DNA of 22,189 bases from a virus (Duplodnaviria > Heunggongvirae > Uroviricota > Caudoviricetes). Position 1 is the first letter of the stretch. Every line of letters begins with the position of its first letter. Below, piece by piece: positions 1,686 through 20,859 of this stretch. Made by a program: the position numbers and the translations under genes. A model generated the notes under the pieces. That model was not told the origin of the DNA and ran no database searches. It saw nothing but the letters and a program-made list of their open reading frames with translations. The stretch lies in the IMG/VR virus record IMGVR_UViG_2687453530_000003. One strand, 5' to 3'.

Positions 1686-3938
1686 TCAATGTTCGCTTCC
1701 TGTTAACTGCCGGACAAGTGCAACCAGTTCGCTTACCTGATTTTCCAGAGTGCTGATCCGGGTGCCTGCTGTTGCCAGATTTTTACGTAGCGTTATGTTT
1801 TCCTCTTCCAGCGCGGTAACGCGACCATCTGTTTCACGGGCGACCTGAACAAGTAACCCCGTCACGGCGGCGTAGTCAACATTCAGATAACGTGTTTCTT
1901 CACGTAATTCATTGCCGTCAACCGTTGGTCCCTGCAACTCTTCACCGTAATGAGTAAACGATCCCACAGCTTCTGGTATCGCCTCCATTACTTCCTGTGC
2001 AATAACGCCAGCATAAGGCATCCCGTTTTCCCTGAGCGTGTAGGTGTATCCGTTCATTTTACGGATTGCTTTCGTCGCGTCGCTGATAACGAGAATATCG
2101 TCTTTAAGGTCGCGGTCTGATGACTGATTCAGCGTTGTGCAATTAATAGCGCCATTTACATCAAACAACTGGCCTGCTGACGTTTTTTGCGCATAAAACA
2201 GATACGCAGCAGACGTTCCAACCTCAAAAACGTTTTGTCGATCACTTGATCCCCATACTTTTGCGGCAAATGATAGTTCTGTATTACCTAAGTTCTGTAA
2301 AACAAAACGATTTCCAGTCCCTGTTTGTTTTGTAAGAGTTAAATCAACAGTTGAGTTAACCTCATCCTTGTTGATAGTGAGCGCCTGCGCTTTAGCCCCG
2401 TTAACAGCACCTGTTTTGAGTTGAACCGCGCCGTCATTACCATTTAACAGTATCTCAGCTCCGCTAAAGAAATTTTTTAGCGACAGCATCTTACTTACGC
2501 CGACTGATGAACCCAACGCCCACGCGAGAGAATTACCGGTGCTATCAAACCCACGTACAAAGCAATCCATTTTGCTATAGTCTGACGTGCTTCCAAGGAC
2601 ATCAATTCGCCCTCCGCCAGATTTTACCGGGTTAGATGTGGTTAATGACCTGACAGCAAGATCGGTAGATGAATTGAGATCGTCTACTGTTAGTAATTTC
2701 TTCCATTCCTGCGTCGTTCCATTTTCAATTGTTCTTCCCCAAAAACCGGAATTGCGGCCTCCGAACTGCACAGCATAATTTTTACTAAATTGAACATGAA
2801 TGCCGCCAAGAACCATAGAACCTGCCGGGCCGTTTGTACTGCCTGCAATTGGTATAAATTTATTAATGTTATCAGTATGCTGCGTGTTCCAGTCTCGTCC
2901 TGTTTTTGTAAGCAGTCCTAATGTCGTGTCGAGCGCTTCGGTTAAAGTAAGGTTTTTAAATTTAACTGCGCTACTTTCGCCAAGACTTAAGTTGTTTCGC
3001 GCATCTTCTACTGTTGTCGCACCTGTACCTCCTTGCCCAACAGCTAATGGCAACCAGCCAGTGCCATTATGACAACCCCACAAACCAGATTTGGAAACCT
3101 GTAAGCGTGGTGCGCCTGAAGAATACGTAGAATATACGTAAGTTGTTTCTTTTCCCTCTTCAACCCTTTCTGTTGATACATCTCTCTTCCATTCAGACCA
3201 GGTACCGCTTCCTCCTTCATATATTCGTCTATAAGTAATTCCCGGATTATTATAAGGGTAGTACACCTGAACGCAGGAAGAAGCAGTGTTGGCTCTCGTT
3301 TGGAGCACTATTAAAGCGCCCGCCAGACCGATTGGGTAATTTAATTCTTCTGTTGCGTAAGCGCTCGTTGGTTGTTGATAGAAACCAGAATATTCACCGG
3401 TAAGGGTGTTTAGGTCAGTATTAGCAAGGCCAGCTTTTTGCTCATACATTACCCGCAAGTTCGCACGTGCTTGCTCGATAGTTCTTCCACCAGTACCGCC
3501 CTGGGCTAAACCTAACGGAGACCATTGTCCAGAAGAAGAATCATAAACTCCCCAACTCCCGTTAGTATGGATTTCAAAGAAACGATCACCAGTTGGACCA
3601 TACATACGAGTTGTTGATTCATTTTGACCAAAGCGGCTTAATTCATCTCTGCGGGTATGACGTATCCATTGCGGGCCAGAACTTTGGCTGTAAATGTACG
3701 AATACAATGATTTTGTATCTGAACCAACAAATAGACCGGAATATCTTTTTGTTGACACTTCTGATCTAACTATATAACCAGAAATAAGATTATCACCGGC
3801 ACTAGACGCTACTGATGGATAACCTTTCGCTGAGATGTAAATCCTGACAAATCCAATATAACCTGATGGCTCAACAGAGATATCAGTGCAGGTCAGCCCC
3901 CCACGCCAGAGACGTGTTGCTGTGGCGACCGTCATCAC
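1686..3938 (-). CDS. Tail fibre protein fragment with C-terminal intramolecular chaperone (peptidase S74-like) domain; probably 5'-truncated, with the true N-terminus replaced at a junction inside lom near position 3890
   Basis: 750-aa ORF with GGTG-x-T-x-E-x-AR-x-NL fibre repeat motifs and a C-terminus (DRDLKDDILVISDATKAIRKMNGYTYTL...) typical of self-cleaving fibre/endosialidase chaperone domains; the first ~16 codons overlap lom out of frame. Confidence 0.7.
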   Translation of the reverse strand: MMTVATATRLWRGGLTCTDISVEPSGYIGFVRIYISAKGYPSVASSAGDNLISGYIVRSEVSTKRYSGLFVGSDTKSLYSYIYSQSSGPQWIRHTRRDELSRFGQNESTTRMYGPTGDRFFEIHTNGSWGVYDSSSGQWSPLGLAQGGTGGRTIEQARANLRVMYEQKAGLANTDLNTLTGEYSGFYQQPTSAYATEELNYPIGLAGALIVLQTRANTASSCVQVYYPYNNPGITYRRIYEGGSGTWSEWKRDVSTERVEEGKETTYVYSTYSSGAPRLQVSKSGLWGCHNGTGWLPLAVGQGGTGATTVEDARNNLSLGESSAVKFKNLTLTEALDTTLGLLTKTGRDWNTQHTDNINKFIPIAGSTNGPAGSMVLGGIHVQFSKNYAVQFGGRNSGFWGRTIENGTTQEWKKLLTVDDLNSSTDLAVRSLTTSNPVKSGGGRIDVLGSTSDYSKMDCFVRGFDSTGNSLAWALGSSVGVSKMLSLKNFFSGAEILLNGNDGAVQLKTGAVNGAKAQALTINKDEVNSTVDLTLTKQTGTGNRFVLQNLGNTELSFAAKVWGSSDRQNVFEVGTSAAYLFYAQKTSAGQLFDVNGAINCTTLNQSSDRDLKDDILVISDATKAIRKMNGYTYTLRENGMPYAGVIAQEVMEAIPEAVGSFTHYGEELQGPTVDGNELREETRYLNVDYAAVTGLLVQVARETDGRVTALEEENITLRKNLATAGTRISTLENQVSELVALVRQLTGSEH

Positions 3939-4446: not shown

Positions 4447-6401
<1,955 letters not shown>

Positions 6402-6427
<26 letters not shown>

Positions 6428-6947
6428 TCAGCAACCCCGGTATCAGTTCATCCAGCGCGGCTGCTTTGTTCATGGCTTTGATGATATCCCGTTTCAGGAA
6501 ATCAACATGTCGGTTTTCCAGTTCCGGAAAACGCCGCTGCACCGACAGGGGGATCCCGTCGAGAATACTGGCAATTTCACCTGCGATCCGCGACAACACG
6601 AAAGTACAGAATGCGGTTTCCACCACTTCAGCGGAGTCTCTGGCATTCTTCAGTTCCTGTGCGTCGGCCTGCGCACGCGTAAGTCGATGGCGTTCGTACT
6701 CAATAGTCCCTGGCTGGAGATCTGCCTCGCTGGCCTGCCGCAGTTCTTCAACCTCCCGGCGCAGCTTTTCGTTCTCAATTTCAGCATCCCTTTCGGCATA
6801 CCATTTTATGACGGCGGCAGAGTCATAAAGCACCTCATTACCCTTGCCACCGCCTCGCAGAACGGGCATTCCCTGTTCCTGCCAGTTCTGAATGGTACGG
6901 ATACTCGCACCGAAAATGTCAGCCAGCTGCTTTTTGTTGACTTCCAT
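6402..6947 (-). CDS. nu1: Terminase small subunit Nu1 (NohD-like)
   Basis: 181 aa, MEVNKKQLADIFGASIRTIQNWQEQGMPV..., the winged-HTH N-terminus of lambda Nu1. Confidence 0.9.
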
Positions 6948-7124
6948 TGTTCATTCCACGGACAAAAACAGAGAAAGGAAACGACAGAGGCCAAAAAGCT
7001 CGCTTTCAGCACCTGTCGCTTCCTTTCTTTTCAGAGGGTATTTTAAATAAAAACATTAAGTTATGACGAAGAAGAACGGAAACGCCTTAAACCGGAAAAT
7101 TTTCATAAATAGCGAAAACCCGCG

Positions 7125-7136
7125 AGGTCGCCGCCC
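7125..7136. other. cosN cohesive-end site; the flanking region 6948-7124 would be cosB
   Basis: AGGTCGCCGCCC is the reverse complement of the lambda 12-nt cohesive end GGGCGGCGACCT, flanked by the lambda left-end sequence CTCGCGGGTTTTCGCTATTTATGAAAATTTTCCGG on the minus strand. Confidence 0.8.
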
Positions 7137-7335
7137 CGTAACCTGTCGGATCGCCGGAAAGGACCCGCAAAATGATAATAATTATCATCTGCATGTCACA
7201 ACGTGCATCTACGCCATCAAACCACGTCAAATAATCAATTATGACGCAGGTATCGTATTAATTGATCTGCATCAACTTAACGTAAAAACAACTTCAGACA
7301 ATACAAATCAGCGACACTGAATACGGGGCAACCTC

Positions 7336-7530
7336 ATGTCAACGAAGAACAGAACCCGCAGAACAACAACCCGCAACATCCGCTTTCCTAACCAAATGAT
7401 TGAACAAATTAACATCGCTCTTGAGCAAAAAGGGTCCGGGAATTTCTCAGCCTGGGTCATTGAAGCCTGCCGTCGGAGACTAACGTCAGAAAAGAGAGCA
7501 TATACATCAATTAAAAGTGATGAAGAATGA
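7336..7530 (+). CDS. ylcI: Small basic hypothetical protein of the lambdoid right-end region (YlcI-like)
   Basis: 64-aa ORF at the same relative position as in DLP12/lambda; identity by recall only. Confidence 0.5.
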   Translation: MSTKNRTRRTTTRNIRFPNQMIEQINIALEQKGSGNFSAWVIEACRRRLTSEKRAYTSIKSDEE

Positions 7531-7694
7531 ACATCCCGCGTTCTTCCCTCCGAACAGGACGATATTGTAAATTCACTTAATTACGAGGGCATTGCAGTAA
7601 TTGAGTTGCAGTTTTACCACTTTCCTGACAGTGACAGACTGCGTGTTGGCTCTGTCACAGGCTAAATAGTTTGAATGATTAGCAGTTATGGTGA

Positions 7695-7901
7695 TCAGTC
7701 AACCACCAGGGAATAATCCTTCATATTATTATCGTGCTTCACCAACGCTGCCTCAATTGCTCTGAATGCTTCCAGAGACACCTTATGTTCTATACATGCA
7801 ATTACAACATCAGGGTAACTCATAGAAATGGTGCTATTAAGCATATTTTTTACACGAATCAGATCCACGGAGGGATCATCAGCAGATTGTTCTTTATTCA
7901 T
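7695..7901 (-). CDS. ybcW: Hypothetical protein (YbcW-like)
   Basis: 68-aa ORF; position and size match DLP12 ybcW as recalled. Confidence 0.5.
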
Positions 7902-8186
7902 TTTGTCGCTCCATGCGCTTGCTCTTCATCTAGCGGTTAAAATATTACTTCAAATCTTTCTGTATGAAGATTTGAGCACGTTGGCCTTACATACATCTGT
8001 CGGTTGTATTTCCCTCCAGAATGCCAGCAGGACCGCACTTTGTTACGCAACCAATACTATTAAGTGAAAACATTCCTAATATTTGACATAAATCATCAAC
8101 AAAACACAAAGAGGTCAGACCAGATTGAAACGATAAAAACGATAATGCAAACTACGCGCCCTCGTATCACATGGAAGGTTTTACCA

Positions 8187-8597
8187 ATGGCTCAGGTTGC
8201 CATTTTTAAAGAAATATTCGATCAAGTGCGAAAAGATTTAAACTGTGAATTGTTTTATTCTGAACTAAAACGTCACAACGTCTCACATTATATTTACTAT
8301 CTAGCCACAGATAATATTCACATCGTGTTAGAAAACGATAACACCGTGTTAATAAAAGGACTTAAAAAGGTTGTAAATGTTAAATTCTCAAGAAACACGC
8401 ATCTTATAGAAACGTCCTATGATAGGTTGAAATCAAGAGAAATCACATTTCAGCAATACAGGGAAAATCTTGCTAAAGCAGGAGTTTTCCGATGGGTTAC
8501 AAATATCCATGAACATAAAAGATATTACTATACCTTTGATAATTCATTACTATTTACTGAGAGCATTCAGAACACTACACAAATCTTTCCACGCTAA
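8187..8597 (+). CDS. ybcV: Hypothetical protein of unknown function (YbcV-like, DUF1398-like)
   Basis: Start chosen at [10 protein letters not shown], preceded by GGAAGG; the longer ORF start at 8064 has no ribosome-binding site. Confidence 0.6.
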
Positions 8598-8887
8598 ATC
8601 ATAACGTCCGGTTTCTTCCGTGTCAGCACCGGGGCGTTGGCATAATGCAATACGTGTACGCGCTAAACCCTGTGTGCATCGTTTTTAATTATTCCCGGAC
8701 ACTCCCGCAGAGAAGTTCCCCGTCAGGGCTGTGGACATAGTTAATCCGGGAATACAATGACGATTCATCGCACCTGACATACATTAATAAATATTAACAA
8801 TATGAAATTTCAACTCATTGTTTAGGGTTTGTTTAATTTTCTACACATACGATTCTGCGAACTTCAAAAAGCATCGGGAATAACACC

Positions 8888-9181
8888 ATGAAAAAAATGC
8901 TACTCGCTACTGCGCTGGCCCTGCTTATTACAGGATGTGCTCAACAGACGTTTACTGTTCAAAACAAACCGGCAGCAGTAGCACCAAAGGAAACCATCAC
9001 CCATCATTTCTTCGTTTCTGGAATTGGGCAGAAGAAAACTGTCGATGCAGCCAAAATTTGTGGCGGCGCAGAAAATGTTGTTAAAACAGAAACCCAGCAA
9101 ACATTCGTAAATGGATTGCTCGGTTTTATTACTTTAGGCATTTATACTCCGCTGGAAGCGCGTGTGTATTGCTCACAATAA
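8888..9181 (+). CDS. bor: Bor lipoprotein (serum-resistance / Iss family)
   Basis: 97 aa, lipobox LLITGC, convergent with the lysis genes as in lambda and DLP12. Confidence 0.85.
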   Translation: MKKMLLATALALLITGCAQQTFTVQNKPAAVAPKETITHHFFVSGIGQKKTVDAAKICGGAENVVKTETQQTFVNGLLGFITLGIYTPLEARVYCSQ

Positions 9182-9212
9182 TTGCATGAGTTGCCCATCG
9201 ATATGGGCAACT

Positions 9213-9674
9213 CTATCTGCACTGCTCATTAATATACTTCTGGGTTCCTTCCAGTTGTTTTTGCATAGTGATCAGCCTCTCTCTGAGGGTGAAATAATCC
9301 CGTTCAGCGGTGTCTGCCAGTCGGGGGGAGGCTGCATTATCCACGCCGGAGGCGGTGGTGGCTTCACGCACTGACTGACAGACTGCTTTGATGTGCAACC
9401 GACGACGACCAGCGGCAACATCATCACGCAGAGCATCATTTTCAGCTTTAGCATCAGCTAACTCCTTCGTGTATTTTGCATCGAGCGCAGCAACATCACG
9501 CTGACGCATCTGCATGTCAGTAATTGCCGCGTTCGCCAGCTTCAGTTCTCTGGCATTTTTGTCGCGCTGGGCTTTGTAGGTAATGGCGTTATCACGGTAA
9601 TGATTAACAGCCCATGACAGGTAGACGATGATGCAGATAACCAGAGCGGAGATAATCGCGGTTACTCTGTTCAT
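9213..9674 (-). CDS. Rz: Rz i-spanin
   Basis: [17 protein letters not shown]... near-identical to lambda Rz; start set at the internal Met of the 157-aa ORF. Confidence 0.9.
9272..9454 (-). CDS. Rz1: Rz1 o-spanin lipoprotein, embedded in Rz in the +1 frame
   Basis: 60 aa with lipobox VVVGC and a PPPPP tract, identical in layout to lambda Rz1. Confidence 0.85.
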
Positions 9675-10168
9675 TGCTGACCCCACAAACAGATTTCACG
9701 CTCAATCTCACGACGAGTCATGAGACCTTTCCATTGCTTACCGCCAGCATATGTCCAGCGACGTAGCTGATCACATGCGCCTTTGATATCGCCCTGGTTT
9801 ATTTTGCGAAGAAGCGTCGATGTTCTGAAATTGCCAGCACCCACGTTGTAAACGAATGAGTAAAGAGCGCCGCGCGTTGTTTCCGGTATATCGACTTTGA
9901 TGTACGGGTTAATTTGTCTGGCGACAGTGGCAAGGTCTTTATTCAAGAGTGCTTTGCATTCTGCTTTGGTATACGTTTTACCGAGCATGATGTCTTTTCC
10001 GGTGTGTCCGTGACATACAGTCCATACGCCAACGATATCTTTGTATGGTACGTAGCTGACACCTTCCAGACCATCGTTACCACTTGGGCCAGTAATTAAC
10101 ACTGATGCTATAGCAATTGCTCCGCCACCAATAGCAGCAGCAACGGCTTTTCGTAATGATGGAGGCAT
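9671..10168 (-). CDS. R: SAR endolysin (T4-lysozyme fold, phage 21 R type)
   Basis: 165 aa; N-terminal weakly hydrophobic Gly/Ala-rich signal-anchor-release segment [18 protein letters not shown] followed by a lysozyme domain. Confidence 0.9.
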
Positions 10169-10383
10169 TATTCACCTCTCGCAGCCTTGCGCTTATCTTC
10201 TTTAATCTTGAAATAAAGGTTTGTCAGGTACGTCAGCAGGCCAAATACCAGGCTACCCAGCACACCTATTGCTGCCCACTGTGAGGGCGTGACTTTATCG
10301 AGCAGCTGTAAAAACCAGTAACCGGCACTACCTGCTGAGGTGCCATAGGCGACACCCGTTGTTAACTTATCCATGGATTTCAT
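10168..10383 (-). CDS. S: Pinholin S21 (71 codons, with dual start MKSMDK giving antiholin and holin)
   Basis: [26 protein letters not shown]...[17 protein letters not shown] matches the phage 21 pinholin; the 5' extension of the ORF is non-coding. Confidence 0.85.
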
Positions 10384-10512
10384 AACCCCACCTCGCAGAC
10401 AAAGCGGGTGTAAATTGAGGGAATACAACGTATCGCAAAAAAGCAGAAACGTAACAGACTCGGAGTCAGTGAATAACTCAGGTATTGGGTTATCAGCTAA
10501 TATCGAGACTCA

Positions 10513-10543
10513 AAAAATGGAAAAACCCGCTCGACGGCGGGTT
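10513..10543 (-). terminator. Intrinsic terminator on the minus strand, candidate tR'-like late-leader terminator upstream of S
   Basis: Minus strand reads AAACCCGC-CGTCGA-GCGGGTTTTTCCATTTTTTG: 8-bp GC-rich stem plus U-tract. Confidence 0.45.
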
Positions 10544-10972
10544 TAAGCTGTGTGACGAAGTAACCACTCTTAACAGCATAACCAATTTTTTACGTACGTA
10601 AACCACTAAATGATATTTGCGAGAATGCTACCGAGTATTGAAAACACCACTACAAATACATAAGAAAATCTCAACAAATAACCAATAAATAATTTCCAGT
10701 GTTATTTTTAGCCGGTTTAAATTGAACCTTCAAATTATAGAGCACTTATAAATAACAGCCGTTAATATAAATTGGCTAATAGATTTATTTTTATTCAGCC
10801 AAGAGCCATGAATAGGATTCGATAGAAAAAAGTTCAGATAAAAATAGAGATCTACTTCACAAATCAAACGAGAAACTAAAACTTACATCTTGAAATAATC
10901 ACATTGATTAGATGAATATTTATCGCGCAGTGACATCATTTTTTAATAATAGTTCAAAAAAAAGGGCTCACG

Positions 10973-12055
10973 ATGAAAAAATTAACAGTGGCAATTTCTG
11001 CTGTAGCTGCATCAGTACTGATGGCGATGTCTGCTCAGGCAGCTGAAATTTATAATAAAGACAGTAACAAGCTGGATCTGTACGGGAAAGTTAATGCCAA
11101 GCACTACTTCTCCTCTAATGATGCAGATGATGGTGATACTACTTATGCCCGTCTTGGCTTCAAAGGTGAAACCCAAATCAACGATCAACTGACTGGTTTC
11201 GGTCAGTGGGAATATGAATTCAAAGGCAACCGCGCTGAATCTCAAGGTTCCTCCAAAGATAAAACCCGTCTTGCCTTCGCTGGCCTGAAATTCGGTGACT
11301 ACGGCTCCATCGATTACGGCCGTAACTACGGTGTAGCATACGACATCGGTGCATGGACCGACGTTCTGCCAGAATTCGGTGGCGATACCTGGACCCAAAC
11401 AGATGTATTCATGACTGGTCGCACCACAGGTGTTGCAACTTATCGTAACAACGACTTCTTTGGTCTGGTTGATGGCCTGAACTTTGCAGCTCAGTATCAG
11501 GGCAAAAATGACCGAAATGAAGTAACTGAAGCTAATGGCGATGGTTTCGGTTTCTCAACTACTTATGAGTATGAAGGATTCGGCGTGGGTGCAACCTATG
11601 CTAAATCTGATCGCACTAATAATCAGGTTATCTACGGTAACAACGGTCTGAATGCTTCTGGTCAAAATGCTGAAGTATGGGCAGCTGGTCTGAAATATGA
11701 TGCGAACAACATCTATCTGGCCACCACCTATTCTGAAACCCAGAACATGACTGTTTTTGGTAATAACCATATTGCCAACAAAGCACAAAACTTCGAAGCT
11801 GTTGCACAATATCAGTTCGACTTCGGCCTGCGTCCATCCGTTGCTTACCTGCATTCTAAAGGAAAAGACTTGGGTGTTTGGGGTGATCAGGACCTGGTTG
11901 AATATGTTGATGTAGGTGCAACCTATTACTTCAACAAAAATATGTCCACTTTTATTGACTACAAAATCAACCTGATTGATAAGAGCGATTTCACGAAAGC
12001 ATCTGGCGTTGCTACCGATGATATCGTTGCTGTAGGTATGGTTTACCAGTTCTAA
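10973..12055 (+). CDS. nmpC: General porin of the OmpC/OmpF family, phage-borne NmpC/Lc type (lysogenic-conversion moron)
   Basis: 360 aa, signal peptide [30 protein letters not shown]..., C-terminal ...VAVGMVYQF; sits on the strand opposite the lysis genes as in DLP12. Confidence 0.9.
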
Positions 12056-12190
12056 TTTGATTACTAAAAGATATGTTGTGGGAGGCTTTGCCTCCCCAAC
12101 ATATAAGTGGCTCCCTCAAGCCACTTCCTTTAGAAGCACAACCTTGCTTCTAACTATATAAACCTTCTGTTATATATTACCCTTTATTTT

Positions 12191-12217
12191 TGGGGGCGTT
12201 TCAACGCCCCATTTTTA
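12191..12217 (+). terminator. Rho-independent terminator after the porin gene, last of a series of four hairpins
   Basis: GGGGCG-TTTCAA-CGCCCC followed by ATTTTT; upstream hairpins AGTGGCT-N6-AGCCACT and AGAAGCA-N6-TGCTTCT. Confidence 0.6.
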
Positions 12218-12243
12218 ATAACTTTTAGTAAATAATTGGCGTA

Positions 12244-12465
12244 TTAATTAGAGTTATTAACAACGATATCCATCTCTAACCGGATATCTAATGCCATTAA
12301 CATCCCTTCAATTATGCCCTCAGCCTTTTGTAACCTTTTCCCGATATAACCATCAGAGCAGCAATGCTTACCTGCCAGTGACATGAATGTCATACCGACT
12401 ATATAATAATCTACTAATAAATCGTGCAAATCGCTGTTGTTCTTTTTCAGACGGGCCATGCACAA
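12244..12465 (-). CDS. Hypothetical 73-aa ORF, possibly a remnant of the sieB region; weak
   Basis: ORF only; located where sieB would lie relative to orf28 and ral, but the frame and length do not match. Confidence 0.25.
12379..12407 (+). promoter_or_regulatory. Candidate sigma-70 promoter (TGACAT-17 bp-TATAAT) reading into orf28-ral-ea10-cIII-kil-exo
   Basis: Hexamers and spacing read directly from the sequence; no experimental support. Confidence 0.3.
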
Positions 12466-12500
12466 TCTTTACTACCGCAATCCACTATTTAAGGTGATAC

Positions 12501-12587
12501 ATGGAAGAAGAATTTGAAGAGTTCGAAGAGCATCCTCAGGATGTGATGGAACAATACCAGGACTATCCGTATGACTACGACTATTGA
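12501..12587 (+). CDS. orf28: orf28-like small acidic protein
   Basis: MEEEFEEFEEHPQDVMEQYQDYPYDYDY, 28 aa, overlapping the ral start as in lambda. Confidence 0.55.
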   Translation: MEEEFEEFEEHPQDVMEQYQDYPYDYDY

Positions 12588-12771
12588 TAAAAATCAATGG
12601 TGTGGACAATTCAAGCGATGCAATGGATGCAAGCTGCAATCGGAATGCATGGTTAAGCCTGAAGAAATGTTTCCTGTAATGGATGATGGGAAATATGTCG
12701 ATAAATGGGCAATACGAACGACGGCAATGATTGCCAGAGAACTTGGTAAACAGAACAACAAAGCTGCCTGA
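12571..12771 (+). CDS. ral: Ral restriction-alleviation protein
   Basis: 66 aa, MTTTIDKNQWCGQFKRCNGCKLQSECMVKPEEMFPV..., essentially lambda Ral. Confidence 0.9.
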   Translation: MTTTIDKNQWCGQFKRCNGCKLQSECMVKPEEMFPVMDDGKYVDKWAIRTTAMIARELGKQNNKAA

Positions 12772-12953
12772 TAGTGGCCTTTATTTTTGGCATAAATAAC
12801 AGAATAAACACTGCACTGTGTATTCATTCCAACGAGTGAATACACGGAGCAATGTCGCTCGTAACTAAACAGGAGCCGACTTGTTCTGATTATTGGAAAT
12901 CTTCTTTGCCCTCCAGTGTGAGGGCGATTTTTTATCTATGAGGATATGAATAG

Positions 12954-13322
12954 ATGTCAAACATCAAAAAATACATCATTGATTACGACTGGAAAGCATC
13001 AATAGAAATTGAAATCGATCATGACGTAATGACAGAGGAAAAACTTCACCAGATTAATAATTTCTGGTCAGACTCTGAATACCGACTCAATAAACACGGC
13101 TCTGTATTAAATGCTGTATTAATCATGCTGGCGCAACATGCTCTGCTTATAGCAATTTCAAGCGACTTAAATGCATATGGTGTTGTGTGTGAGTTCGACT
13201 GGAATGATGGAAATGGTCAGGAAGGATGGCCTCCAATGGATGGTAGCGAAGGAATAAGAATTACCGATATCGATACATCAGGAATATTTGATCCAGATGA
13301 TATGACTATCAAAGCCGCCTGA
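12954..13322 (+). CDS. ea10: Ea10-like protein
   Basis: 122 aa at the lambda ea10 position between ral and cIII. Confidence 0.7.
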   Translation: MSNIKKYIIDYDWKASIEIEIDHDVMTEEKLHQINNFWSDSEYRLNKHGSVLNAVLIMLAQHALLIAISSDLNAYGVVCEFDWNDGNGQEGWPPMDGSEGIRITDIDTSGIFDPDDMTIKAA

Positions 13323-13394
13323 GCGCGGCGTTACCGCATACCAATAACGCTTCACTCGAGGCGTTTTTCGTTATGTATAAATAAGGAGCACACC

Positions 13395-13559
13395 ATGCAA
13401 TATGCCATTGCAGGGTGGCCTGTTGCTGGCTGCCCTTCCGAATCTTTACTTGAACGAATCACCCGTAAATTACGTGACGGATGGAAACGCCTTATCGACA
13501 TACTTAATCAGCCAGGAGTCCCAAAAAATGGATCAAACACTTATGGCTATCCAGACTAA
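13395..13559 (+). CDS. cIII: cIII, FtsH inhibitor
   Basis: 54 aa, MQYAIAGWPVAGCPSESLLERITRKLRDGWKRLIDILNQPGVPKNGSNTYGYPD. Confidence 0.9.
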   Translation: MQYAIAGWPVAGCPSESLLERITRKLRDGWKRLIDILNQPGVPKNGSNTYGYPD

Positions 13560-13680
13560 ATTCACTATCGCCACTTTTATTGGCGATGAAAAGATGTTTC
13601 GTGAGGCCGTCGACGCTTATAAAAAATGGATATTAATACTGAAACTGAGATCAAGCAAAAGCATTCACTACCCCCCTTAA
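13528..13680 (+). CDS. kil: Kil, host cell-division inhibitor (50 codons here; the stop appears shifted by the adjacent deletion junction)
   Basis: MDQTLMAIQTKFTIATFIGDEKMFREAVDAYKKWILILKLRSSKSIH..., overlapping the cIII end as in lambda. Confidence 0.8.
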   Translation: MDQTLMAIQTKFTIATFIGDEKMFREAVDAYKKWILILKLRSSKSIHYPP

Positions 13681-13873: not shown

Positions 13874-14550
13874 CACCGGACATTATCCTGCAGCGTACCG
13901 GGATCGACGTGAGAGCTGTCGAACAGGGGGATGATGCATGGCACAAATTACGGCTCGGCGTCATCACCGCTTCAGAAGTTCACAACGTGATAGCAAAGCC
14001 CCGCTCAGGAAAGAAGTGGCCTGACATGAAAATGTCCTACTTCCACACCCTGCTGGCTGAGGTTTGCACCGGTGTGGCTCCGGAAGTTAATGCTAAGGCG
14101 CTGGCCTGGGGAAAACAGTACGAGAACGACGCCAGAACCCTGTTTGAATTCACTTCCGGCGTGAATATTACTGAATCCCCGATCATCTATCGCGACGAAA
14201 ATATGCGCACCGCCTGCTCTCCCGATGGTTTATGCAGTGACGGCAACGGCCTTGAACTGAAATGCCCGTTTACCTCCCGGGATTTCATGAAATTCCGGCT
14301 CGGTGGTTTCGAGGCAATAAAATCGGCTTACATGGCCCAGGTGCAGTACAGCATGTGGGTGACGCGAAAAGATGCCTGGTACTTTGCCAACTATGACCCG
14401 CGCATGAAGCGTGAAGGCCTGCATTATGTCGTGATTGAGCGGAATGAAAAGTACATGGCGAGTTTTGACGAGATGGTGCCGGAGTTCATCGAAAAAATGG
14501 ACGAGGCACTGGCTGAAATTGGTTTTGTATTTGGGGAGCAATGGCGATGA
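13870..14550 (+). CDS. exo: Exo, lambda 5'-3' exonuclease (Red alpha), intact
   Basis: 226 aa, [40 protein letters not shown]...GFVFGEQWR. Confidence 0.95.
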
Positions 14551-14732
14551 CGCATCCTCACGATAATATCCGGGTAGGCGCAATCACTTTCGTCTACTCC
14601 GTTACAAAGCGAGGCTGGGTATTTCCCGGCCTTTCTGTAATCCGAAATCCCCTGAAAGCACAGCGGCTGGCTGAGGAGATAAATAATAAATGGGGGGGGG
14701 CTGTATGCACAAAGCATCTCCCGTTGAGTTAA
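14547..14732 (+). CDS. orf60a: orf60a-like protein
   Basis: [31 protein letters not shown]...; ATGA overlap with the exo stop. Confidence 0.7.
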
Positions 14733-14896
14733 GAACGAGTATCGAGATGGCACATAGCCTCGCTCAAATTGGAGTCAGGTTTGTGCCAATACCAGTAGAA
14801 ACAGACGAAGAATTTCACACGTTAGCCGCATCCCTTTCACAAAAGCTGGAAATGATGGTGGCGAAAGCAGAAGCAGATGAGAGAGACCAGGTATGA
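14705..14896 (+). CDS. orf63: orf63-like protein
   Basis: [23 protein letters not shown]..., 63 aa. Confidence 0.7.
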   Translation: MHKASPVELRTSIEMAHSLAQIGVRFVPIPVETDEEFHTLAASLSQKLEMMVAKAEADERDQV

Positions 14897-14976
14897 CAAC
14901 CACTGAATGCATTTTTCTGGCAGCGGGCTTCATATTCTGTGTGCTTATGCTTGCCGACATGGGACTTGTTCAATGA
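14893..14976 (+). CDS. Candidate 27-aa single-pass membrane peptide, translationally coupled between orf63 and orf61
   Basis: MTTTECIFLAAGFIFCVLMLADMGLVQ; its ATG overlaps the orf63 TGA (ATGA) and its TGA overlaps the orf61 ATG (ATGA). Confidence 0.35.
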   Translation: MTTTECIFLAAGFIFCVLMLADMGLVQ

Positions 14977-15188
14977 CACCTCAGCAGGAAAACGCCCTTC
15001 GCAGCATTGCCCGTCAGGCTAATTCTGAAATCAAAAAAGCCAGACAGCAGTTTCCGGATAAAAACGTCGATGACATTTGCCGTAGCGTACTGAAGAAGCA
15101 CCGCGAAACGGTAACGCTGATGGGATTCACACCGACTCATTTAAGCCTGGCAATCGGCATGTTAAACGGCGTCTTTAAGGAACGATGA
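14973..15188 (+). CDS. orf61: orf61-like protein
   Basis: MTPQQENALRSIARQANSEIKKARQQFPDKNVDD...; start chosen at the coupled ATG rather than the upstream out-of-context Met. Confidence 0.65.
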   Translation: MTPQQENALRSIARQANSEIKKARQQFPDKNVDDICRSVLKKHRETVTLMGFTPTHLSLAIGMLNGVFKER

Positions 15189-15286
15189 ACATGAAAAGCA
15201 AAATCATCAGGGAGCTACAGGCTCCTTTTTTATTATTCGCATTCACCCTCAAGCGTATTAACCAACAATTCAGGGATTAATGGAAG

Positions 15287-15508
15287 ATGGCAGACATCAT
15301 TGATTCAGCATCAGAAATTGAAGAATTACAGCGCAACACAGCAATAAAAATGCGTCGTCTGAACTACCAGACTGTATCTGCCACTCATTGTTGTGAGTGT
15401 GGCGATCCGATAGATGAACGAAGACGCCTGGTCGTTCAGGGTTGTCGGACTTGTGCAAGTTGCCAGGAGGATCTGGAGCTTATCAGTAAACAGAGAGGTT
15501 CGAAGTGA
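15287..15508 (+). CDS. orf73: TraR/DksA-family C4 zinc-finger protein (lambda Orf73-like RNA polymerase secondary-channel binder)
   Basis: 73 aa with C-x-x-C...C-x-x-C (CECGDPIDERRRLVVQGCRTCASC). Confidence 0.8.
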   Translation: MADIIDSASEIEELQRNTAIKMRRLNYQTVSATHCCECGDPIDERRRLVVQGCRTCASCQEDLELISKQRGSK

Positions 15509-15912
15509 GCGAAATTAACTCTCAGGCACTGCGTGAAGCGGCAGAGAAAGCCGGTGAAGATAAGTGGCAGGCTAAAAAAATAAATGGTGATTTTTTCGTT
15601 ATTCGTCACGGTAGTTATACAAGACAGCATGGCTACACATCGAATCAACCCATTGCGGAGATTGATTGTAAGCCAGTCCGGGATTTTGTTGCCAAGGCTA
15701 ATCCGGCTACCGTGCTGGAATTACTGGATGAACTGGAAGCAGCAAAAAAGCGCATTGCAGAACTGGAAGCGCGGGAAATACTGCTCCCGGAACGTAGCAG
15801 CATGCTTCATCGAACAGATTTTCACGATGATTACCAAACGGTAATGGCATACAAAGTTTCTGAAGTCATCGATGCAATCCGCGCTACTGGCATTCGCATC
15901 AAAGGAGAGTGA
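15505..15912 (+). CDS. ea22: Ea22-like protein, short variant with coiled-coil centre
   Basis: GTG start overlapping the orf73 stop; N-terminus MSEINSQALREAAE and C-terminus ...GIRIKGE resemble lambda Ea22 termini as recalled. Confidence 0.5.
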   Translation: MSEINSQALREAAEKAGEDKWQAKKINGDFFVIRHGSYTRQHGYTSNQPIAEIDCKPVRDFVAKANPATVLELLDELEAAKKRIAELEAREILLPERSSMLHRTDFHDDYQTVMAYKVSEVIDAIRATGIRIKGE

Positions 15913-15913
15913 G

Positions 15914-16669
15914 ATGATTCACTACCACGGTGGGCCTATTACTCCTGATACGTGCGCAATGAGAGCATGGAAAGGGCGACATGCGTTTATCAGTTTTGCG
16001 CATTCAGGCCAGATCAATCTCGCGGCTGAATACTGTCAGTCGTTCGCGCTGGACAACGGTGCATTCACCGCCTGGAAAGCAGCTGGCAAAAACAAAATCG
16101 ACTGGAGCGATTACTACGAGTTTGTTGCTCGCTGGAAGAATCACCCAGGATTCGATTTTGCCATTATCCCGGATATTATTGATGGCGGAGAGGAGGAAAA
16201 TGATGCGCTTCTGAATGAGTGGCCTCACGGAAAACTAGCTGGCGTTCCAGTGTGGCACATGAATGAAAGTGACGCGCGATTTATTCATTTGTGCAATGAG
16301 TTTCCGCGAGTGGCTATCGGTAGTTGTGGCGACTATGACGTAAAGCGCCCAACTCTTGCGGTAGCCAGAATGAAAGACCTGATTCGTCACATTGTTGATG
16401 GGCATGGTCAGCCGGTTACGAAACTACATGGATTGCGCATGTTAAATCCGCTGATATTCACAAAATTACCCTTAGCCAGCGCAGATAGTACGAACGTCGC
16501 TCGAAACATCGGTATTGATAAAGCCTGGTCTGGGGCTTATGCACCTGCAAGTAAAGAGACACGCGCAGCATTAATGGTAGAACGGATTGAGGCACACAAT
16601 AGCCCTGGTTCTCTTGCGTATTGTGAACAACGCGACCGCTTTGAAATGCAATTGCAACTAGCAGTTTAA
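15914..16669 (+). CDS. Queuine tRNA-ribosyltransferase-like (TGT/DpdA-family) protein; candidate 7-deazaguanine DNA transglycosylase
   Basis: 251 aa after a strong ribosome-binding site (AAAGGAGAG); segments FALDNGAF, IIPDIIDGG, VAIGSCGDY, KLHGLRMLNP resemble TGT-fold motifs as recalled; no C-x-C-x-x-C...H zinc motif. Confidence 0.5.
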   Translation: MIHYHGGPITPDTCAMRAWKGRHAFISFAHSGQINLAAEYCQSFALDNGAFTAWKAAGKNKIDWSDYYEFVARWKNHPGFDFAIIPDIIDGGEEENDALLNEWPHGKLAGVPVWHMNESDARFIHLCNEFPRVAIGSCGDYDVKRPTLAVARMKDLIRHIVDGHGQPVTKLHGLRMLNPLIFTKLPLASADSTNVARNIGIDKAWSGAYAPASKETRAALMVERIEAHNSPGSLAYCEQRDRFEMQLQLAV

Positions 16670-16679
16670 GGACTAACAA

Positions 16680-17477
16680 ATGACCACTATTACCAAAGAA
16701 CGTATTGAATTGTTCATTAAAAATCCGCTTGAAAACGGGCTTACTCGTGGCGAACAAATGGAACTGGCACGAATTGCACTGGCATCACTGGAACGCGAAC
16801 TGATTCGCCACGAGCATGCCAAATGGTCTGACTCCACATTTGGCTGCGTTGGCCCCATTGGTCCACTGAAACACCTCTCAAAAGAGGCTCTGGAAGCCGC
16901 AGCCGAACCAGACGATCTCAGCGAGTGGGCTGATATGCATTTCCTGTTGTGGGATGCACAGCGCCGTGCTGGCATCAGCGATGCTGAAATTACCGCTGCT
17001 ATGGAAGATAAATTGAAGATCAACATGGAGCGCCAGTGGCCTGAACCAAAAGATGGTGAGCCTCGCTTGCACATTAAAGAACCCGGCAACTCTCCGGTAA
17101 TTCCGGATGGTTTATCCACGGTATGCGCTGAGGCTTATCAGGTTGTAGGAGTTATGGCAGATGCGCTTGGTGTATTCGGTGATGCAGCAGTACAGAAAGT
17201 TCTGGATAACCTGTCACAGCAAAAACTTGTTCACAGAGATGTGCTGCCGTTCTCGCTTCCGGTGACTCCGGATGGTTGGATAAGCTGTAGTGAGCGAATG
17301 CCGAAAGAAACGGGTGACATTATTGTTGTTTCGGATGGCATTGTAATGTCCGGGATTTCTTATTCTCGTCGTGACGGGTTCTATATAGCCGCATTGGAGT
17401 ACGACGACGATGAGCCAATTGGCGGTGTAACCCACTGGATGCCTCTACCAGAACCGCCTCGATTAAAGGAGCTATAA
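16680..17477 (+). CDS. Two-domain protein: N-terminal DUF550-like (MazG-like dATP/dGTP pyrophosphohydrolase family) plus C-terminal DUF551-like domain
   Basis: 265 aa; family assignment by recalled similarity to prophage DUF550/DUF551 proteins. Confidence 0.5.
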   Translation: MTTITKERIELFIKNPLENGLTRGEQMELARIALASLERELIRHEHAKWSDSTFGCVGPIGPLKHLSKEALEAAAEPDDLSEWADMHFLLWDAQRRAGISDAEITAAMEDKLKINMERQWPEPKDGEPRLHIKEPGNSPVIPDGLSTVCAEAYQVVGVMADALGVFGDAAVQKVLDNLSQQKLVHRDVLPFSLPVTPDGWISCSERMPKETGDIIVVSDGIVMSGISYSRRDGFYIAALEYDDDEPIGGVTHWMPLPEPPRLKEL

Positions 17478-17780
17478 TAGTGAACTATTATATCTATTTG
17501 TATTAAAAGAGTTTTTATAAAATAAATCTCCCAAAGCATGTAAAAACACTGTTAATCTTAACGTGTGTGAAACGTGAAGAGAGGTGTTGAAATGAGCATT
17601 CATGATTTGTGTGAAGATCAAGAGCAATGGGCTATGCAGACCCTTATGGGATCAGGAGTTCTTGCAAGGTGCAGAATCCATAACGATGTAATTTTAGACA
17701 GCGGAAATGATGCTTCTTCTGCTTATAAATTAGGAACTTACCTATATCAAAAAGATAATAGCTGCAACTTATTCAATACT

Positions 17781-17785
17781 CTTAC
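17781..17785. repeat. IS2 target-site duplication, left copy (CTTAC)
   Basis: Identical 5-mer immediately flanks both IS2 ends. Confidence 0.85.
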
Positions 17786-17796
17786 TGGATTTGCCC

Positions 17797-18702
17797 CTAT
17801 ATTTCCAGACATCTGTTATCACTTAACCCATTACAAGCCCGCTGCCGCAGATATTCCCGTGGCGAGCGATAACCCAGCGCACTATGCGGATGCCATTCGT
17901 TATAATGCTCGAACGCCTCTGCAAGGTTCTTTGCTGCCGTTAACCCGTCTGGTTTGGGCATGATACTGATGTAGTCACGCTTTATCGTTTTCACGAAGCT
18001 CTCTGCTATTCCGTTACTCTCCGGACTCCGCACCGCCGTGTTCTTCGGTTCAAGTCCCAACATCCGGGCGAACTGGCGTGTTTCATTAGCCCGGTAGCAT
18101 GAACCATTATCCGTCAGCCACTCCACTGGAGACGACGGAAGATCGTTGCCGAAGCGGCGTTCCACCGCTCCCAGCATGACGTCCTGTACTGTTTCACTGT
18201 TGAAGCCGCCGGTAGTGACCGCCCAGTGCAGTGCCTCACGATCACAGCAGTCCAGCGCGAACGTGACACGCAGTCTCTCTCCGTTATCACAGCAGAACTC
18301 GAACCCGTCAGAGCACCATCGCTGATTGCTTTCTTTCACGGCCACTCTGCCTGTATGTGCCCGTTTCGATGGCGGTACAGCAGGTTTTCGCTCAAGCAAC
18401 AGCGCATTCTGGCGCATGATCCGGTAAACACGTTTGGCATTGATCGCAGGCATACCATCAAGTTCTGCCTGTCTGCGAAGCAGCGCCCATACCCGACGAT
18501 AACCATACGTGGGCAGCTCTCCGATAACATGGTGTATACGGAGAAGCACATCCGTATCATCAGTGTGACGACTGCGGCGGCCATCCATCCAGTCATCGGT
18601 TCGTCTGAGAATGACGTGCAACTGCGCACGCGACACCCGGAGACAACGGCTGACTAAGCTTACTCCCCATCCCCGGGCAATAAGGGCGCGTGCGCTATCC
18701 AC
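17797..18702 (-). CDS. insD: IS2 transposase OrfB (InsD; DDE catalytic domain, expressed as an OrfAB fusion by -1 frameshift)
   Basis: 301 aa, [34 protein letters not shown].... Confidence 0.9.
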
Positions 18703-19025
18703 TTTTTTGCCCGTCCATATTCAACGGCTTCTTTGAGGAGTTCATTTTCCATCGTTTTCTTGCCGAGCAGGCGCTGGAGTTCTTTAATCTGCTTCATGGC
18801 GGCAGCAAGTTCAGAGGCAGGAACAACCTGTTCTCCGGCGGCGACAGCAGTAAGACTTCCTTCCTGGTATTGCTTACGCCAGAGAAATAACTGGCTGGCT
18901 GCTACACCATGTTGCCGGGCAACGAGGGAGACCGTCATCCCCGGTTCAAAGCTCTGCTGAACAATTGCGATCTTTTCCTGTGTGGTACGCCGTCTGCGTT
19001 TCTCCGGCCCTAAGACATCAATCAT
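18660..19025 (-). CDS. insC: IS2 OrfA (InsC; HTH DNA-binding regulator)
   Basis: [53 protein letters not shown].... Confidence 0.9.
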
Positions 19026-19116
19026 CTGTTCTCCAATGACTAGTCTAAAAACTAGTATTAAGACTATCACTTATTTAAGTGATACTGGTTGTCTGGAGAT
19101 TCAGGGGGCCAGTCTA

Positions 19117-19121
19117 CTTAC
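19117..19121. repeat. IS2 target-site duplication, right copy (CTTAC)
   Basis: Matches 17781-17785. Confidence 0.85.
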
Positions 19122-19258
19122 TGAAGCCCGCGACGCAATAAAGGATGCATATGAATCGTATTGTGGGATCGATGATTGCCCACAATGCTCAAAATACATT
19201 GACGATTAATAATATGAACAAGTAACTATCCTCGCACTCGCGGGGATTTCTTTTATCT

Positions 19259-19285
19259 GAACTCGCTACGGCGAGTTTTGTTTTA
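19259..19285 (+). terminator. Rho-independent terminator downstream of ea8.5
   Basis: AACTCGC-TACG-GCGAGTT followed by TTGTTTT. Confidence 0.5.
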
Positions 19286-19297
19286 TGGCGATGATAA

Positions 19298-19465
19298 ATG
19301 CACTTCCGAGTTACAGGTGAATGGAATGGAGAACCATTCAACAGAGTTATCGAAGCCGAGAACATCAGCGACTGCTATGACCACTGGATGCTGTGGGCGC
19401 AGATAGCACATGCAGACGTAACCAATATTCGAATTGAAGAACTGAAAGAACACCAAGCCGCCTGA
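19298..19465 (+). CDS. Small 55-aa ORF between ea8.5 and xis (orf55-like); speculative
   Basis: MHFRVTGEWNGEPFNRVIEAENISDCYDHWMLWAQIAHADVTNIRIEELKEHQAA, translated by hand; weak ribosome-binding site. Confidence 0.35.
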   Translation: MHFRVTGEWNGEPFNRVIEAENISDCYDHWMLWAQIAHADVTNIRIEELKEHQAA

Positions 19466-19476
19466 TGGCGGTTTTT
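19455..19476 (+). terminator. Weak intrinsic terminator upstream of xis
   Basis: CCGCC-TGAT-GGCGG followed by TTTTTT. Confidence 0.4.
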
Positions 19477-19504
19477 TCTTGCGTGTAATTGCGGAGACTT
19501 TGCG

Positions 19505-19723
19505 ATGTACTTGACACTTCAGGAGTGGAACGCACGCCAGCGACGCCCAAGAAGCCTTGAAACAGTTCGTCGATGGGTACGCGAGTGCAGGATATTCCCT
19601 CCTCCGGTTAAGGATGGAAGAGAGTATCTGTTCCACGAATCAGCGGTAAAGGTTGACTTAAATCGACCAGTAACAGGTAGCCTTTTGAAGAGGATCAGAA
19701 ATGGGAAGAAGGCGAAGTCATGA
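19505..19723 (+). CDS. xis: Excisionase Xis
   Basis: 72 aa, MYLTLQEWNARQRRPRSLETVRRWVRECRIFPPPVKDGREYLFHESAVKVDLNRP.... Confidence 0.95.
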   Translation: MYLTLQEWNARQRRPRSLETVRRWVRECRIFPPPVKDGREYLFHESAVKVDLNRPVTGSLLKRIRNGKKAKS

Positions 19724-20771: not shown

Positions 20772-20859
20772 TGATTTTATTTTGACTGATAGTGACCTGT
20801 TCGTTGCAACAAATTGATAAGCAATGCTTTTTTATAATGCCAACTTAGTATAAAAAAGC
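20772..20859. other. attL: attL: P' arm plus 15-bp lambda core (core at 20845-20859, TTAGTATAAAAAAGC, reverse complement of GCTTTTTTATACTAA)
   Basis: Core read directly; the P' arm sequence ATGATTTTATTTTGACTGATAGTGACCTGTTCGTTGCAACAAATTGATAAGCAATGC matches lambda attP P' as recalled. Confidence 0.85.

Follow-up and report, generated by a model that had tools for sequence, protein, structure and literature searches.

An internal deletion from sieB into Q as the probable origin of a defective lambdoid prophage at the lambda attachment site of Escherichia coli

The 22,189-nucleotide DNA of IMG/VR record IMGVR_UViG_2687453530_000003 (the whole stretch is called 'the window' in what follows, with positions counted from its first letter) is a defective lambdoid prophage occupying the lambda attachment site in a poultry-associated Escherichia coli lineage that resembles avian pathogenic E. 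coli (APEC) O78. It matches complete chromosomes of APEC O78-like E. coli isolated from chicken, duck, pig, dog and human at 99.97-100% identity, and it contains the lambda att core GCTTTTTTATACTAA (20845-20859) with a lambda-type int gene (19701-20771) on one side and ybhC on the other, i.e., an att site adjoining a phage integrase as is expected of a cryptic lambdoid prophage. The flanking genes ybhC, ybhJ and ybhI are arranged as in E. coli K-12. Functions essential for induction, replication and morphogenesis are lost: cI, cro, N, O and P are gone, and Q is truncated. Compared with APEC O78, 1,266 bp of the side-tail-fibre gene (L001 5622-6887) are missing at 3887-3895, where the alignment blocks overlap by 9 bp, and because of this difference the source strain is a relative of APEC O78 and not APEC O78 itself. 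Our subject is the short interval between the holin gene S and the early-left gene orf28 (10384-12500), and the event that joined its two sides.

Contents of the interval and its junction

Along the plus strand the gene order is bor, Rz, R, S, interval, orf28, ral, ea10, cIII, kil, exo, xis and int, the minus strand of the window corresponding to rightward transcription of the phage. The interval exactly fills the space between the start codons of S and orf28 and holds, read from orf28 towards S, a 3' fragment of a Q21-family antiterminator gene, an opposite-strand porin gene with its 3' hairpins and an AT-rich spacer (Table 1). The first-pass annotation, made from the sequence without database searches, had stated that the entire immunity, replication and antitermination block from N through Q is absent and is replaced by a porin 'moron' and the spacer. 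For most of the block the loss is borne out, since tblastn with the lambda and ev243 proteins SieB, N, RexA, RexB, CI, Cro, CII, O, P, Ren, Nin, RusA and YlcG gave no match in the 22-kb window. The lambda annotation places pL/oL, nutL and N between the ral-side breakpoint (see below) and cI, and hence inside the missing block together with cI, cro, O and P. The loss extends from sieB through the first 55 codons of Q.

The statement that Q is absent, however, has to be corrected, because a 220-bp 3' portion of a quuD-type gene survives. It comprises 72 of 127 codons, with the start and the first 55 codons missing, is 98.6% identical to gp60 of phage ev243, and matches PF06530 at profile positions 56-118 of 118 (E = 2.6e-19; 69.8 bits against a cut-off of 26), a family that represents Q21 (PMC9388147). 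The family assignment is taken from Pfam because a PDB sequence search with the 73-residue fragment gave no match. Homology ends at 12463, and a complete frame of the QuuD type (own start, ~127 residues) is not present; the open frame that begins at a TTG at the junction is fortuitous, and the fragment is a pseudogene, as it is labelled in RefSeq (quuD pseudogene, 'incomplete, missing N-terminus'). A translated search, which the first annotator had proposed as a check on the loss of N, cI and Q, thus returns a Q homologue in a formal sense, in the shape of this startless fragment, and none of N or cI.

Nor can the porin gene and the spacer be considered a replacement. Over 10384-12243 the window and the Q-to-S interval of ev243 are 99.2% identical; 36 phage records (including ev243, PhiR26_1, mEp332 and Perceval) have at least 80% of this sequence between full-length Q and S genes; and the interval sequence is fully accounted for by the Q-to-S intervals of ev243 (99.2%) and of the K-12 prophage DLP12 (96-97%). 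As judged from these alignments, porin, hairpins and spacer are the normal Q-to-S interval of DLP12-type late regions.

The junction itself is defined to within a few bases. In ungapped alignments, homology to the Q region of ev243 is continuous up to 12463 and homology to the ral region of lambda and ev243 is continuous from 12460 on, the bases GCAC being common to both; the match rises to six of seven bases when CA-N-GCAC is counted. The alignments reveal neither filler bases nor an insertion sequence (IS) element at the join. On the ral side the breakpoint corresponds to lambda coordinate 34398, ~40 bp upstream of orf28 and short of sieB. Two GCAC copies are located in ev243 (locus L004, 6593-6596 and 15232-15235) at a distance of 8,639 bp, and exactly 8,639 bp are missing when the window is compared with this intact phage. 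Such a join bears what we take to be the signature of an illegitimate, microhomology-associated deletion and not of site-specific or homologous exchange. When used as a query, 241 bp spanning the junction matched 21 of 5,426 complete E. coli genomes at 100% identity and full coverage, a 317-bp query run in sensitive mode retrieved the same 21 genomes, and the remaining genomes matched one side of the junction only. The junction is therefore real, and the 21 carriers, which comprise genomes from chicken, duck, pig, dog and human, probably inherited it from one ancestor.

One base of the Q fragment, T at 12402, differs from both ev243 and DLP12 and converts CATAAT into TATAAT. It completes a sigma-70-like site (GTGACA, 18 bp, TATAAT; 11/12) at 12378-12407 on the plus strand, antisense within the fragment, which since the deletion points into orf28 and ral from ~95 bp away and could give N-independent expression of ral. 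We rejected the idea that T12402 is a promoter-creating mutation acquired as an adaptation after the deletion: K-12 and ev243 carry CATAAT, the TATAAT allele is common in intact quuD genes, and because many genomes with full-length quuD are 100% identical to the window over 12340-12463, the T represents a common allele. The fragment contains no CII-type site (TTGC-N6-TTGC) as found at the lambda antisense promoter paQ. The sole such site in the window (19479-19492, plus strand) lies just upstream of xis, where lambda pI is expected, and int expression from pI should be lost because the activator CII is deleted.

Table 1. Features of the interval and of the genes adjoining it
Feature	Position	Strand	Properties and evidence
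bor, serum-resistance lipoprotein	8888-9181	plus	97 aa; PF06291; 97/97 residues identical to lambda Bor
Rz spanin	9213-9674	minus	153 aa; PF03245; 153/153 residues identical to ev243
Rz1 lipoprotein, embedded in Rz	9272-9454	minus	60 aa; frame intact
R, endolysin of the signal-anchor-release (SAR) type	9671-10168	minus	165 aa; PF00959
S, phage-21-type pinholin	10168-10383	minus	71 aa, dual start M1/M4 (MKSM); PF04971, E = 3.5e-35
Predicted late-leader intrinsic terminator (tR'-like)	10512-10544	minus	stem-loop 10544-10523, then UUCCAUUUUUU; terminator scan
Putative late promoter (pR'-like)	10568-10602	minus	-35 TTTACG 10602-10597; -10 TATGCT 10580-10575; predicted +1 A 10568
AT-rich divergent control region upstream of the porin gene	10604-10972		29% GC
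Start-site region implied by DLP12 reporter numbering	10924-10956	minus	sigma-E-like -35 GAACTA 10955-10950; -10 TCACT 10933-10929; +1 ~10924
General porin, NmpC/Lc/OmpD type	10973-12055	plus	360 aa, intact, signal peptide; PF00267 1-337/337
Four stem-loops 3' of the porin gene	12071-12104, 12105-12126, 12131-12152, 12193-12210	plus	fold and terminator scan
3' fragment of Q21-family antiterminator gene (quuD type)	12244-12463	minus	codons 56-127 and stop; 220 bp
Deletion junction	12460-12463		GCAC common to both parental sequences; ungapped alignments to lambda and ev243
orf28	12501-12587	plus	tblastn 100% to lambda
ral	12571-12771	plus	tblastn 98.5% to lambda; PF11058
Two terminator-like hairpins, ral to ea10	12763-12788, 12906-12935	plus	terminator scan

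Porin cassette, late promoter and terminator

The opposite-strand gene is a general porin of the NmpC/Lc type followed by four hairpins, just as it had first been described. The protein matches PF00267 over its full length (E = 1e-151) and exceeds the curated cut-off of the NCBIfam model for the OmpC subfamily. Its identity to reconstructed K-12 NmpC is 90%, with both gaps and most differences located in residues 148-270 of 360. Compared with shuffled sequences the hairpin region folds with z-scores of -7.4 to -8.4 on either strand, and its fourth hairpin (GGGGCGTTTCAACGCCCC, then ATTTTT) is a good plus-strand intrinsic terminator according to the terminator scan. The P1-like phage P7 carries a porin gene of 75% identity, with ~60 bp upstream and the 3' region included in the match, and its 3' region likewise forms four hairpins in the same positions which have other stem sequences, the last one again followed by a U tract; the P7 cassette (L012 1564-2900) is inserted between odaA and ssb. 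Having its own terminator and occurring in an unrelated phage backbone, the porin gene behaves in these two respects as expected of a moron, and the cassette forms a mobile, self-terminated unit. Within the divergent control region (10604-10972) the promoter scan detected no sigma-70-like site of at least 9/12 for the porin gene, and Rfam yielded nothing above threshold at 9900-13100, where two matches with E near 1 are noise.

The spacer between S and the porin gene (10384-10972; 589 bp, 34% GC, with 29% GC in the porin-proximal 369 bp) is virtually invariant among the window, DLP12 and ev243. It contains the tR'-like terminator that had been noticed about 130 nt upstream of S: this lies on the minus strand, possesses an 8-bp GC-rich stem with a T tract running to 10512, ends 129 nt before the S ATG, and appears to belong to the late leader. 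A sensitive DNA search of the interval matched 10521-10603 to many Shiga toxin (Stx) phages with 77-78% identity over 83 bp, and the Stx-phage counterpart starts 14 nt ahead of the Q stop codon and extends past pR' into the leader. For the Stx prophage Sp5, Sy et al. (PMC7547250) mapped the pR' start site by differential RNA sequencing (dRNA-seq) and a 3' end 258 nt downstream. The -35 element TTTACG and this start site align with positions 10602-10597 and 10568 of the window, and the tR' hairpin folds at +25 to +46 of the leader so predicted. The offset from the published Sp5 coordinates to the current Sakai record is taken to be +142; with this value the 3' end lands on the last T of the terminator T run and the start lands 7 nt after a TATCAT hexamer with TTTACG 16 bp upstream, two coincidences that serve as a check on the value. 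The terminator is also kept in Sakai Sp5/Stx2 II and in the prophage at argU of APEC O78. Q proteins of the Sp5/933W type belong to PF06530 as well and are 79% identical to the QuuD type over residues 1-120, the QuuD tail diverging beyond.

Hence, two features expected of a Q-dependent late cassette are found in the spacer, namely (i) homology of the promoter and initial transcribed region to a mapped pR', and (ii) a terminator between the promoter and the late genes, whereas a third, a cognate Q in cis, is missing owing to truncation of the gene. A pR' adjoining the 3' end of Q, the arrangement of lambda and the Stx phages, was sought and rejected: the scan made no promoter-like call on the minus strand of 12056-12243, and the sole homologue of the Stx pR' and leader in the interval is 10521-10603. 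We thus consider it probable, with some reservation, that the porin cassette lies between Q and pR' and that the tR'-like terminator is the first terminator of the late leader.

The reservation arises from several observations that weigh against this assignment. The position of pR' rests on homology, only 8 of the 12 bases in its hexamers agree with the sigma-70 consensus, and a simple promoter scan makes no call there. Moreover, the numbering of a DLP12 reporter implies a start ~360 nt further upstream, near 10924. Pasqua et al. cloned the control region of the DLP12 lysis operon as -121 to +650 (PMC7918800), using numbers that follow Rueggeberg et al. 2015, a paper which, as cited there, has 'regulated by RpoE' in its title. 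The forward primer of the reporter maps to 11045-11026, and the reverse primer, which as printed has no match within three mismatches, was placed by eye at ~10258-10279; with the reverse primer at ~10258 the DLP12 amplicon measures 771 bp, and +1 becomes equivalent to window ~10924. Upstream of this position a motif TGAACTA-N16-TCACT is identical in the window, DLP12 and ev243. It presumably resembles the sigma-E consensus, and from this consensus together with the cited title we infer a sigma-E-type start in the region. Host-controlled expression, involving RpoE and Hha, has been reported for the DLP12 lysis region (PMC7918800). A transcript starting at ~10924 would still have to pass tR' without its cognate Q.

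A second prophage of the same strain, located at argU, supports the proposed position of pR'. In APEC O78 this remnant (L009 = NC_020163.1 1262000-1311000, positions 14089-20555) carries a third Q21-family allele and the only other gene of this family that we found there, an intact Q (20175-20555) of 50% identity, followed by another opposite-strand gene (19141-20160) at the same place between Q and pR', a leader (18945-18999) and the late genes; it also carries iss, a serum-survival gene of the Bor family (L009 14089-14382). Accessory genes appear to insert recurrently into the gap between Q and pR'. The argU leader is 91% identical to window 10521-10575, and the sequence upstream of the leader start is unrelated. 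Conservation of the leader, with a promoter-upstream part that varies with the Q allele, would be expected if the latter region holds the putative Q-binding element.

Retained genes, proposed history and alternatives

The retained lysis genes are intact and nearly identical to those of functional relatives. S is identical to DLP12 EssD and to the ev243 holin in 71 of 71 residues, and R to DLP12 RrrD and the ev243 endolysin in 164 of 165. The sequence of R begins with a hydrophobic segment rich in Gly and Ala, followed by E35, D44 and T50, which we take to be the catalytic triad positions described for phage 21. The pair of pinholin and SAR endolysin typical of phage 21 is thus present. On the other side of the junction, orf28 and ral are the first genes of the early-left arm, which is now promoterless, and kil, cIII, ea10, ral and orf28 are 98-100% identical to lambda (100% for kil and cIII). 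In the absence of N, the two hairpins between ral and ea10 should stop read-through before it reaches cIII and kil. The Rfam element Lambda_thermo (RF01804), a thermoregulator of cIII mRNA, is found intact at 13382-13440 (plus strand; 88.5 bits against a gathering score of 50), even though the operon lacks pL.

Based on the junction and on the arrangement of both arms, we conclude with considerable confidence that a single internal deletion in a parent resembling ev243 or ev099 gave rise to this defective prophage, and that we are dealing with ordinary prophage decay. The parent would have combined a lambda-type left arm (int-xis-exo-ral) with a DLP12/21-type late region in the order Q21-family Q, opposite-strand porin cassette, pR', tR', S, R, Rz/Rz1 and bor. 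One illegitimate recombination between the two GCAC copies would then have removed 8,639 bp, with endpoints ~40 bp upstream of orf28 and at codon 55 of Q, and with them sieB, N, nutL, pL/oL, rexAB, cI, pR/oR, cro, cII, O with the origin, P, ren, the nin genes, rusA, ylcG and the 5' part of Q. The same event would have cost the phage its two early promoters, its two antiterminators (N as a whole, Q in function), the repressor and the origin. Because promoters and antiterminators were deleted together, the toxic genes kil, S, R and Rz are presumably left without a driver and the remnant can be stably carried; loss of cI only would be lethal, whereas the present deletion is survivable because the drivers of kil and S-R-Rz went too. 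The porin cassette has kept its own upstream region and its four 3' hairpins, the porin may be expressed, and bor stayed intact. The putative pR' should still fire, with transcripts stopping at tR' after ~50 nt because no cognate Q is made.

The first-pass annotation had regarded both the lysis cassette and the early-left operon as orphaned of their native control. For the early-left genes this is upheld, as pL/oL, nutL and N fall inside the interval of lambda that is deleted. For the lysis cassette it is correct in so far as the cognate Q is lost, but the pR'-like promoter, the terminator and, base for base, the DLP12 spacer are kept.

After this deletion the remnant would have decayed further. 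Near 5380 a fusion (4447-6427, minus strand) places a truncated gene for the large terminase subunit A next to the C-terminal part of J, and because of this abutment the head genes and most tail genes must be gone; nu1 (6402-6947) and the cos-proximal region are kept. A second internal deletion at 13677/13678, with a 2-bp overlap at the join, accounts for 958 bp missing in comparison with ev243. It leaves ~18 codons of gam and takes codons 1-194 of bet, whereas the overlapping kil is complete. An IS2 transposase gene lies at 17797-19025, between exo and xis, according to the RefSeq annotation of the identical APEC O78 sequence.

Three points argue against, or at least limit, this history. A match as short as 4 bp at the join could have arisen by chance; sequence does not reveal by which enzymes the deletion was made; and no ancestor with an intact block at the same site and near-100% identity in both arms was retrieved, so that the parent is inferred from free phages of 96-99% identity. 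The best full-length quuD match that was inspected, in ECCWS199, was rejected as the intact ancestor because it belongs to a differently decayed prophage at argU.

The alternative that fares best, although we regard it as unlikely, is domestication: porin, Bor, Lom and a Q-less lysis cassette would be retained under host signals such as sigma-E and Hha for envelope remodelling, vesicle production, biofilm formation or serum resistance, as has been proposed for DLP12 of K-12. Consistent with this idea, the genes of the late module are all intact and near-identical to their counterparts in functional phages although the element has undergone at least four other decay events, the spacer is invariant including the region that the DLP12 reporter numbering implies as start site, and 21 genomes, from several host species, still carry the junction. 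For the DLP12 lysis genes, an influence on vesicle production and a response to RpoE, Hha and a Q-type factor have also been reported (PMC7918800). Yet intactness may mean only that the deletion is recent, since the 21 copies are 100% identical over the 241-bp and 317-bp queries and provide no signal of purifying selection, and transcripts from an upstream start would still encounter tR' without cognate Q. That the remnant is a host-wired late module devoid of Q, and not inert, is a doubtful proposition, and a less probable one than domestication. If it were true, (i) transcription from pR' as far as tR' would constitutively yield a leader RNA of ~50 nt, equivalent to the leader that gives rise to the small RNA StxS of Stx phages, with a possible role in trans, (ii) S, R and the spanin could be switched on by envelope stress of the host through the upstream sigma-E-like start, and (iii) the Q of an incoming phage of the QuuD or 933W type could trigger premature lysis of the infected cell.

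A chimera formed by recombination between a resident DLP12-like and a lambda-like prophage is very improbable. E. coli genomes do contain several lambdoid prophages with common modules (the median genome has 5 places that match a 5-kb query), DLP12, to which the late arm is 96% identical, has its usual location at argU, and ECCWS199 carries a differently truncated Q-porin-lysis module at that site. However, the join shares 4 bp only and is thus not a product of homologous exchange, both arms are ordered and oriented as in a single ev243/ev099-like genome, of which intact examples exist, a separate remnant, whose Q and lysis genes are different ones, occupies the argU site of APEC O78, and an event between prophages would rearrange the chromosome, whereas the flanks ybhC, ybhJ and ybhI are those of K-12. 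Finally, the short interval might have arisen artificially during sequencing or assembly, e.g., through collapse of a repeat between prophages, given that prophage repeats often cause mis-assembly and parts of the region recur within genomes, but we consider this practically out of the question in view of an identical junction in 21 complete genomes, which different laboratories sequenced independently and which come from different hosts, and of two junction sides that share 4 bp only and hence offer no repeat to collapse.

Deletion of the immunity and replication block is the textbook route to a cryptic lambdoid prophage; the kind of defective prophage described here is well known, and RefSeq already flags the truncated quuD. 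The endpoints are instructive in that they show what a survivable deletion may look like, with pL, pR, N, the origin and 5' Q lost together so that kil and the lysis genes are presumably silent. The putative location of the DLP12-type late promoter ~185 bp upstream of S, with the porin cassette between it and Q, should assist the annotation of E. coli prophages. The intact genes for surface proteins (porin, Bor and Lom) in an avian-pathogenic lineage are reasonable candidates for testing.

Relation to intact phages, DLP12 and Stx phages

Both arms of the window are collinear with single intact phages, at 98-99% identity to ev243 on each side, and ev099 covers 49% of the window. The phages ev243, ev099, mEp332 and PhiR11_1 match it at 94-99% identity on the ral-exo arm and in the Q-porin-S-R-Rz-bor region, but, unlike the window, they keep the block sieB-N-rex-cI-cro-cII-O-P-ren-nin-rusA-ylcG, a complete Q, gam and bet. 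PhiR26_1 and Perceval have the Q-porin-S late region in common with the window and retain Q, ylcG and rusA, the only genes of the block for which their regions were compared. The first-pass annotation had described a mosaic of a lambda-derived int-exo arm and a DLP12/21-derived late region. The arms are indeed as described: the ral-to-exo arm is lambda-like at 99% identity, and the same arm is found in intact phages at 98-99%; the late region appears DLP12/21-like in view of its identity to DLP12 (96% over 6120-12463), its Q21-family Q, its P21-type holin and its SAR-type endolysin. The mosaic is, however, older than the deletion, because intact ev243, ev099, mEp332, PhiR11_1 and 434 carry both arms.

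The nearest defective relative is DLP12 of K-12, which is 96-97% identical to the window in nucleotide sequence over 6120-12463 (nohD to quuD) and has the same order of Q, opposite-strand porin gene, essD, rrrD, rzpD/rzoD, borD, ybcV, ybcW and ylcI. The spacer from S to the porin gene is near-identical in the two elements (572 bp in DLP12 and 589 bp in the window), both of which are defective remnants. DLP12 differs in that it occupies the argU site, has its own integrase and a full-length quuD, and carries an nmpC split by IS5, whereas the window has the lambda att site, a lambda-type int-to-ral arm, only the last 72 codons of Q, and an intact porin gene. Lysogenic-conversion cassettes that likewise encode a phage-borne general porin of the OmpC/OmpF/PhoE family are known from DLP12 (nmpC) and P7 (nmpC), and we assume the same of Lc of phage PA-2. 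At argU of ECCWS199 (L008 8846-15401) a further prophage shows another pattern of decay: its differently truncated Q-porin-lysis module has a full-length quuD ~110 bp from a truncated regulator gene and a gene for an S24 peptidase (cI-like), and a fragment of the terminase small-subunit gene abuts a tail-tip fragment. It seems that the Q-porin-lysis module has repeatedly survived the decay of the remaining phage genome.

With the Stx phages (Sakai Sp5, 933W and Stx2 II, the source of the small RNA StxS), the window shares a Q of the same PF06530 family (79% identity) and a homologous -35 element, start site, initial transcribed region and first hairpin (78% over 83 bp). In these phages pR' overlaps the last codons of Q, and the mapped transcript of 258 nt extends to a second terminator ahead of tRNA genes and stx. 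The window, in contrast, has ~1.6 kb of porin cassette and AT-rich DNA between the Q stop codon and the putative pR', and only the first hairpin-terminator precedes S.

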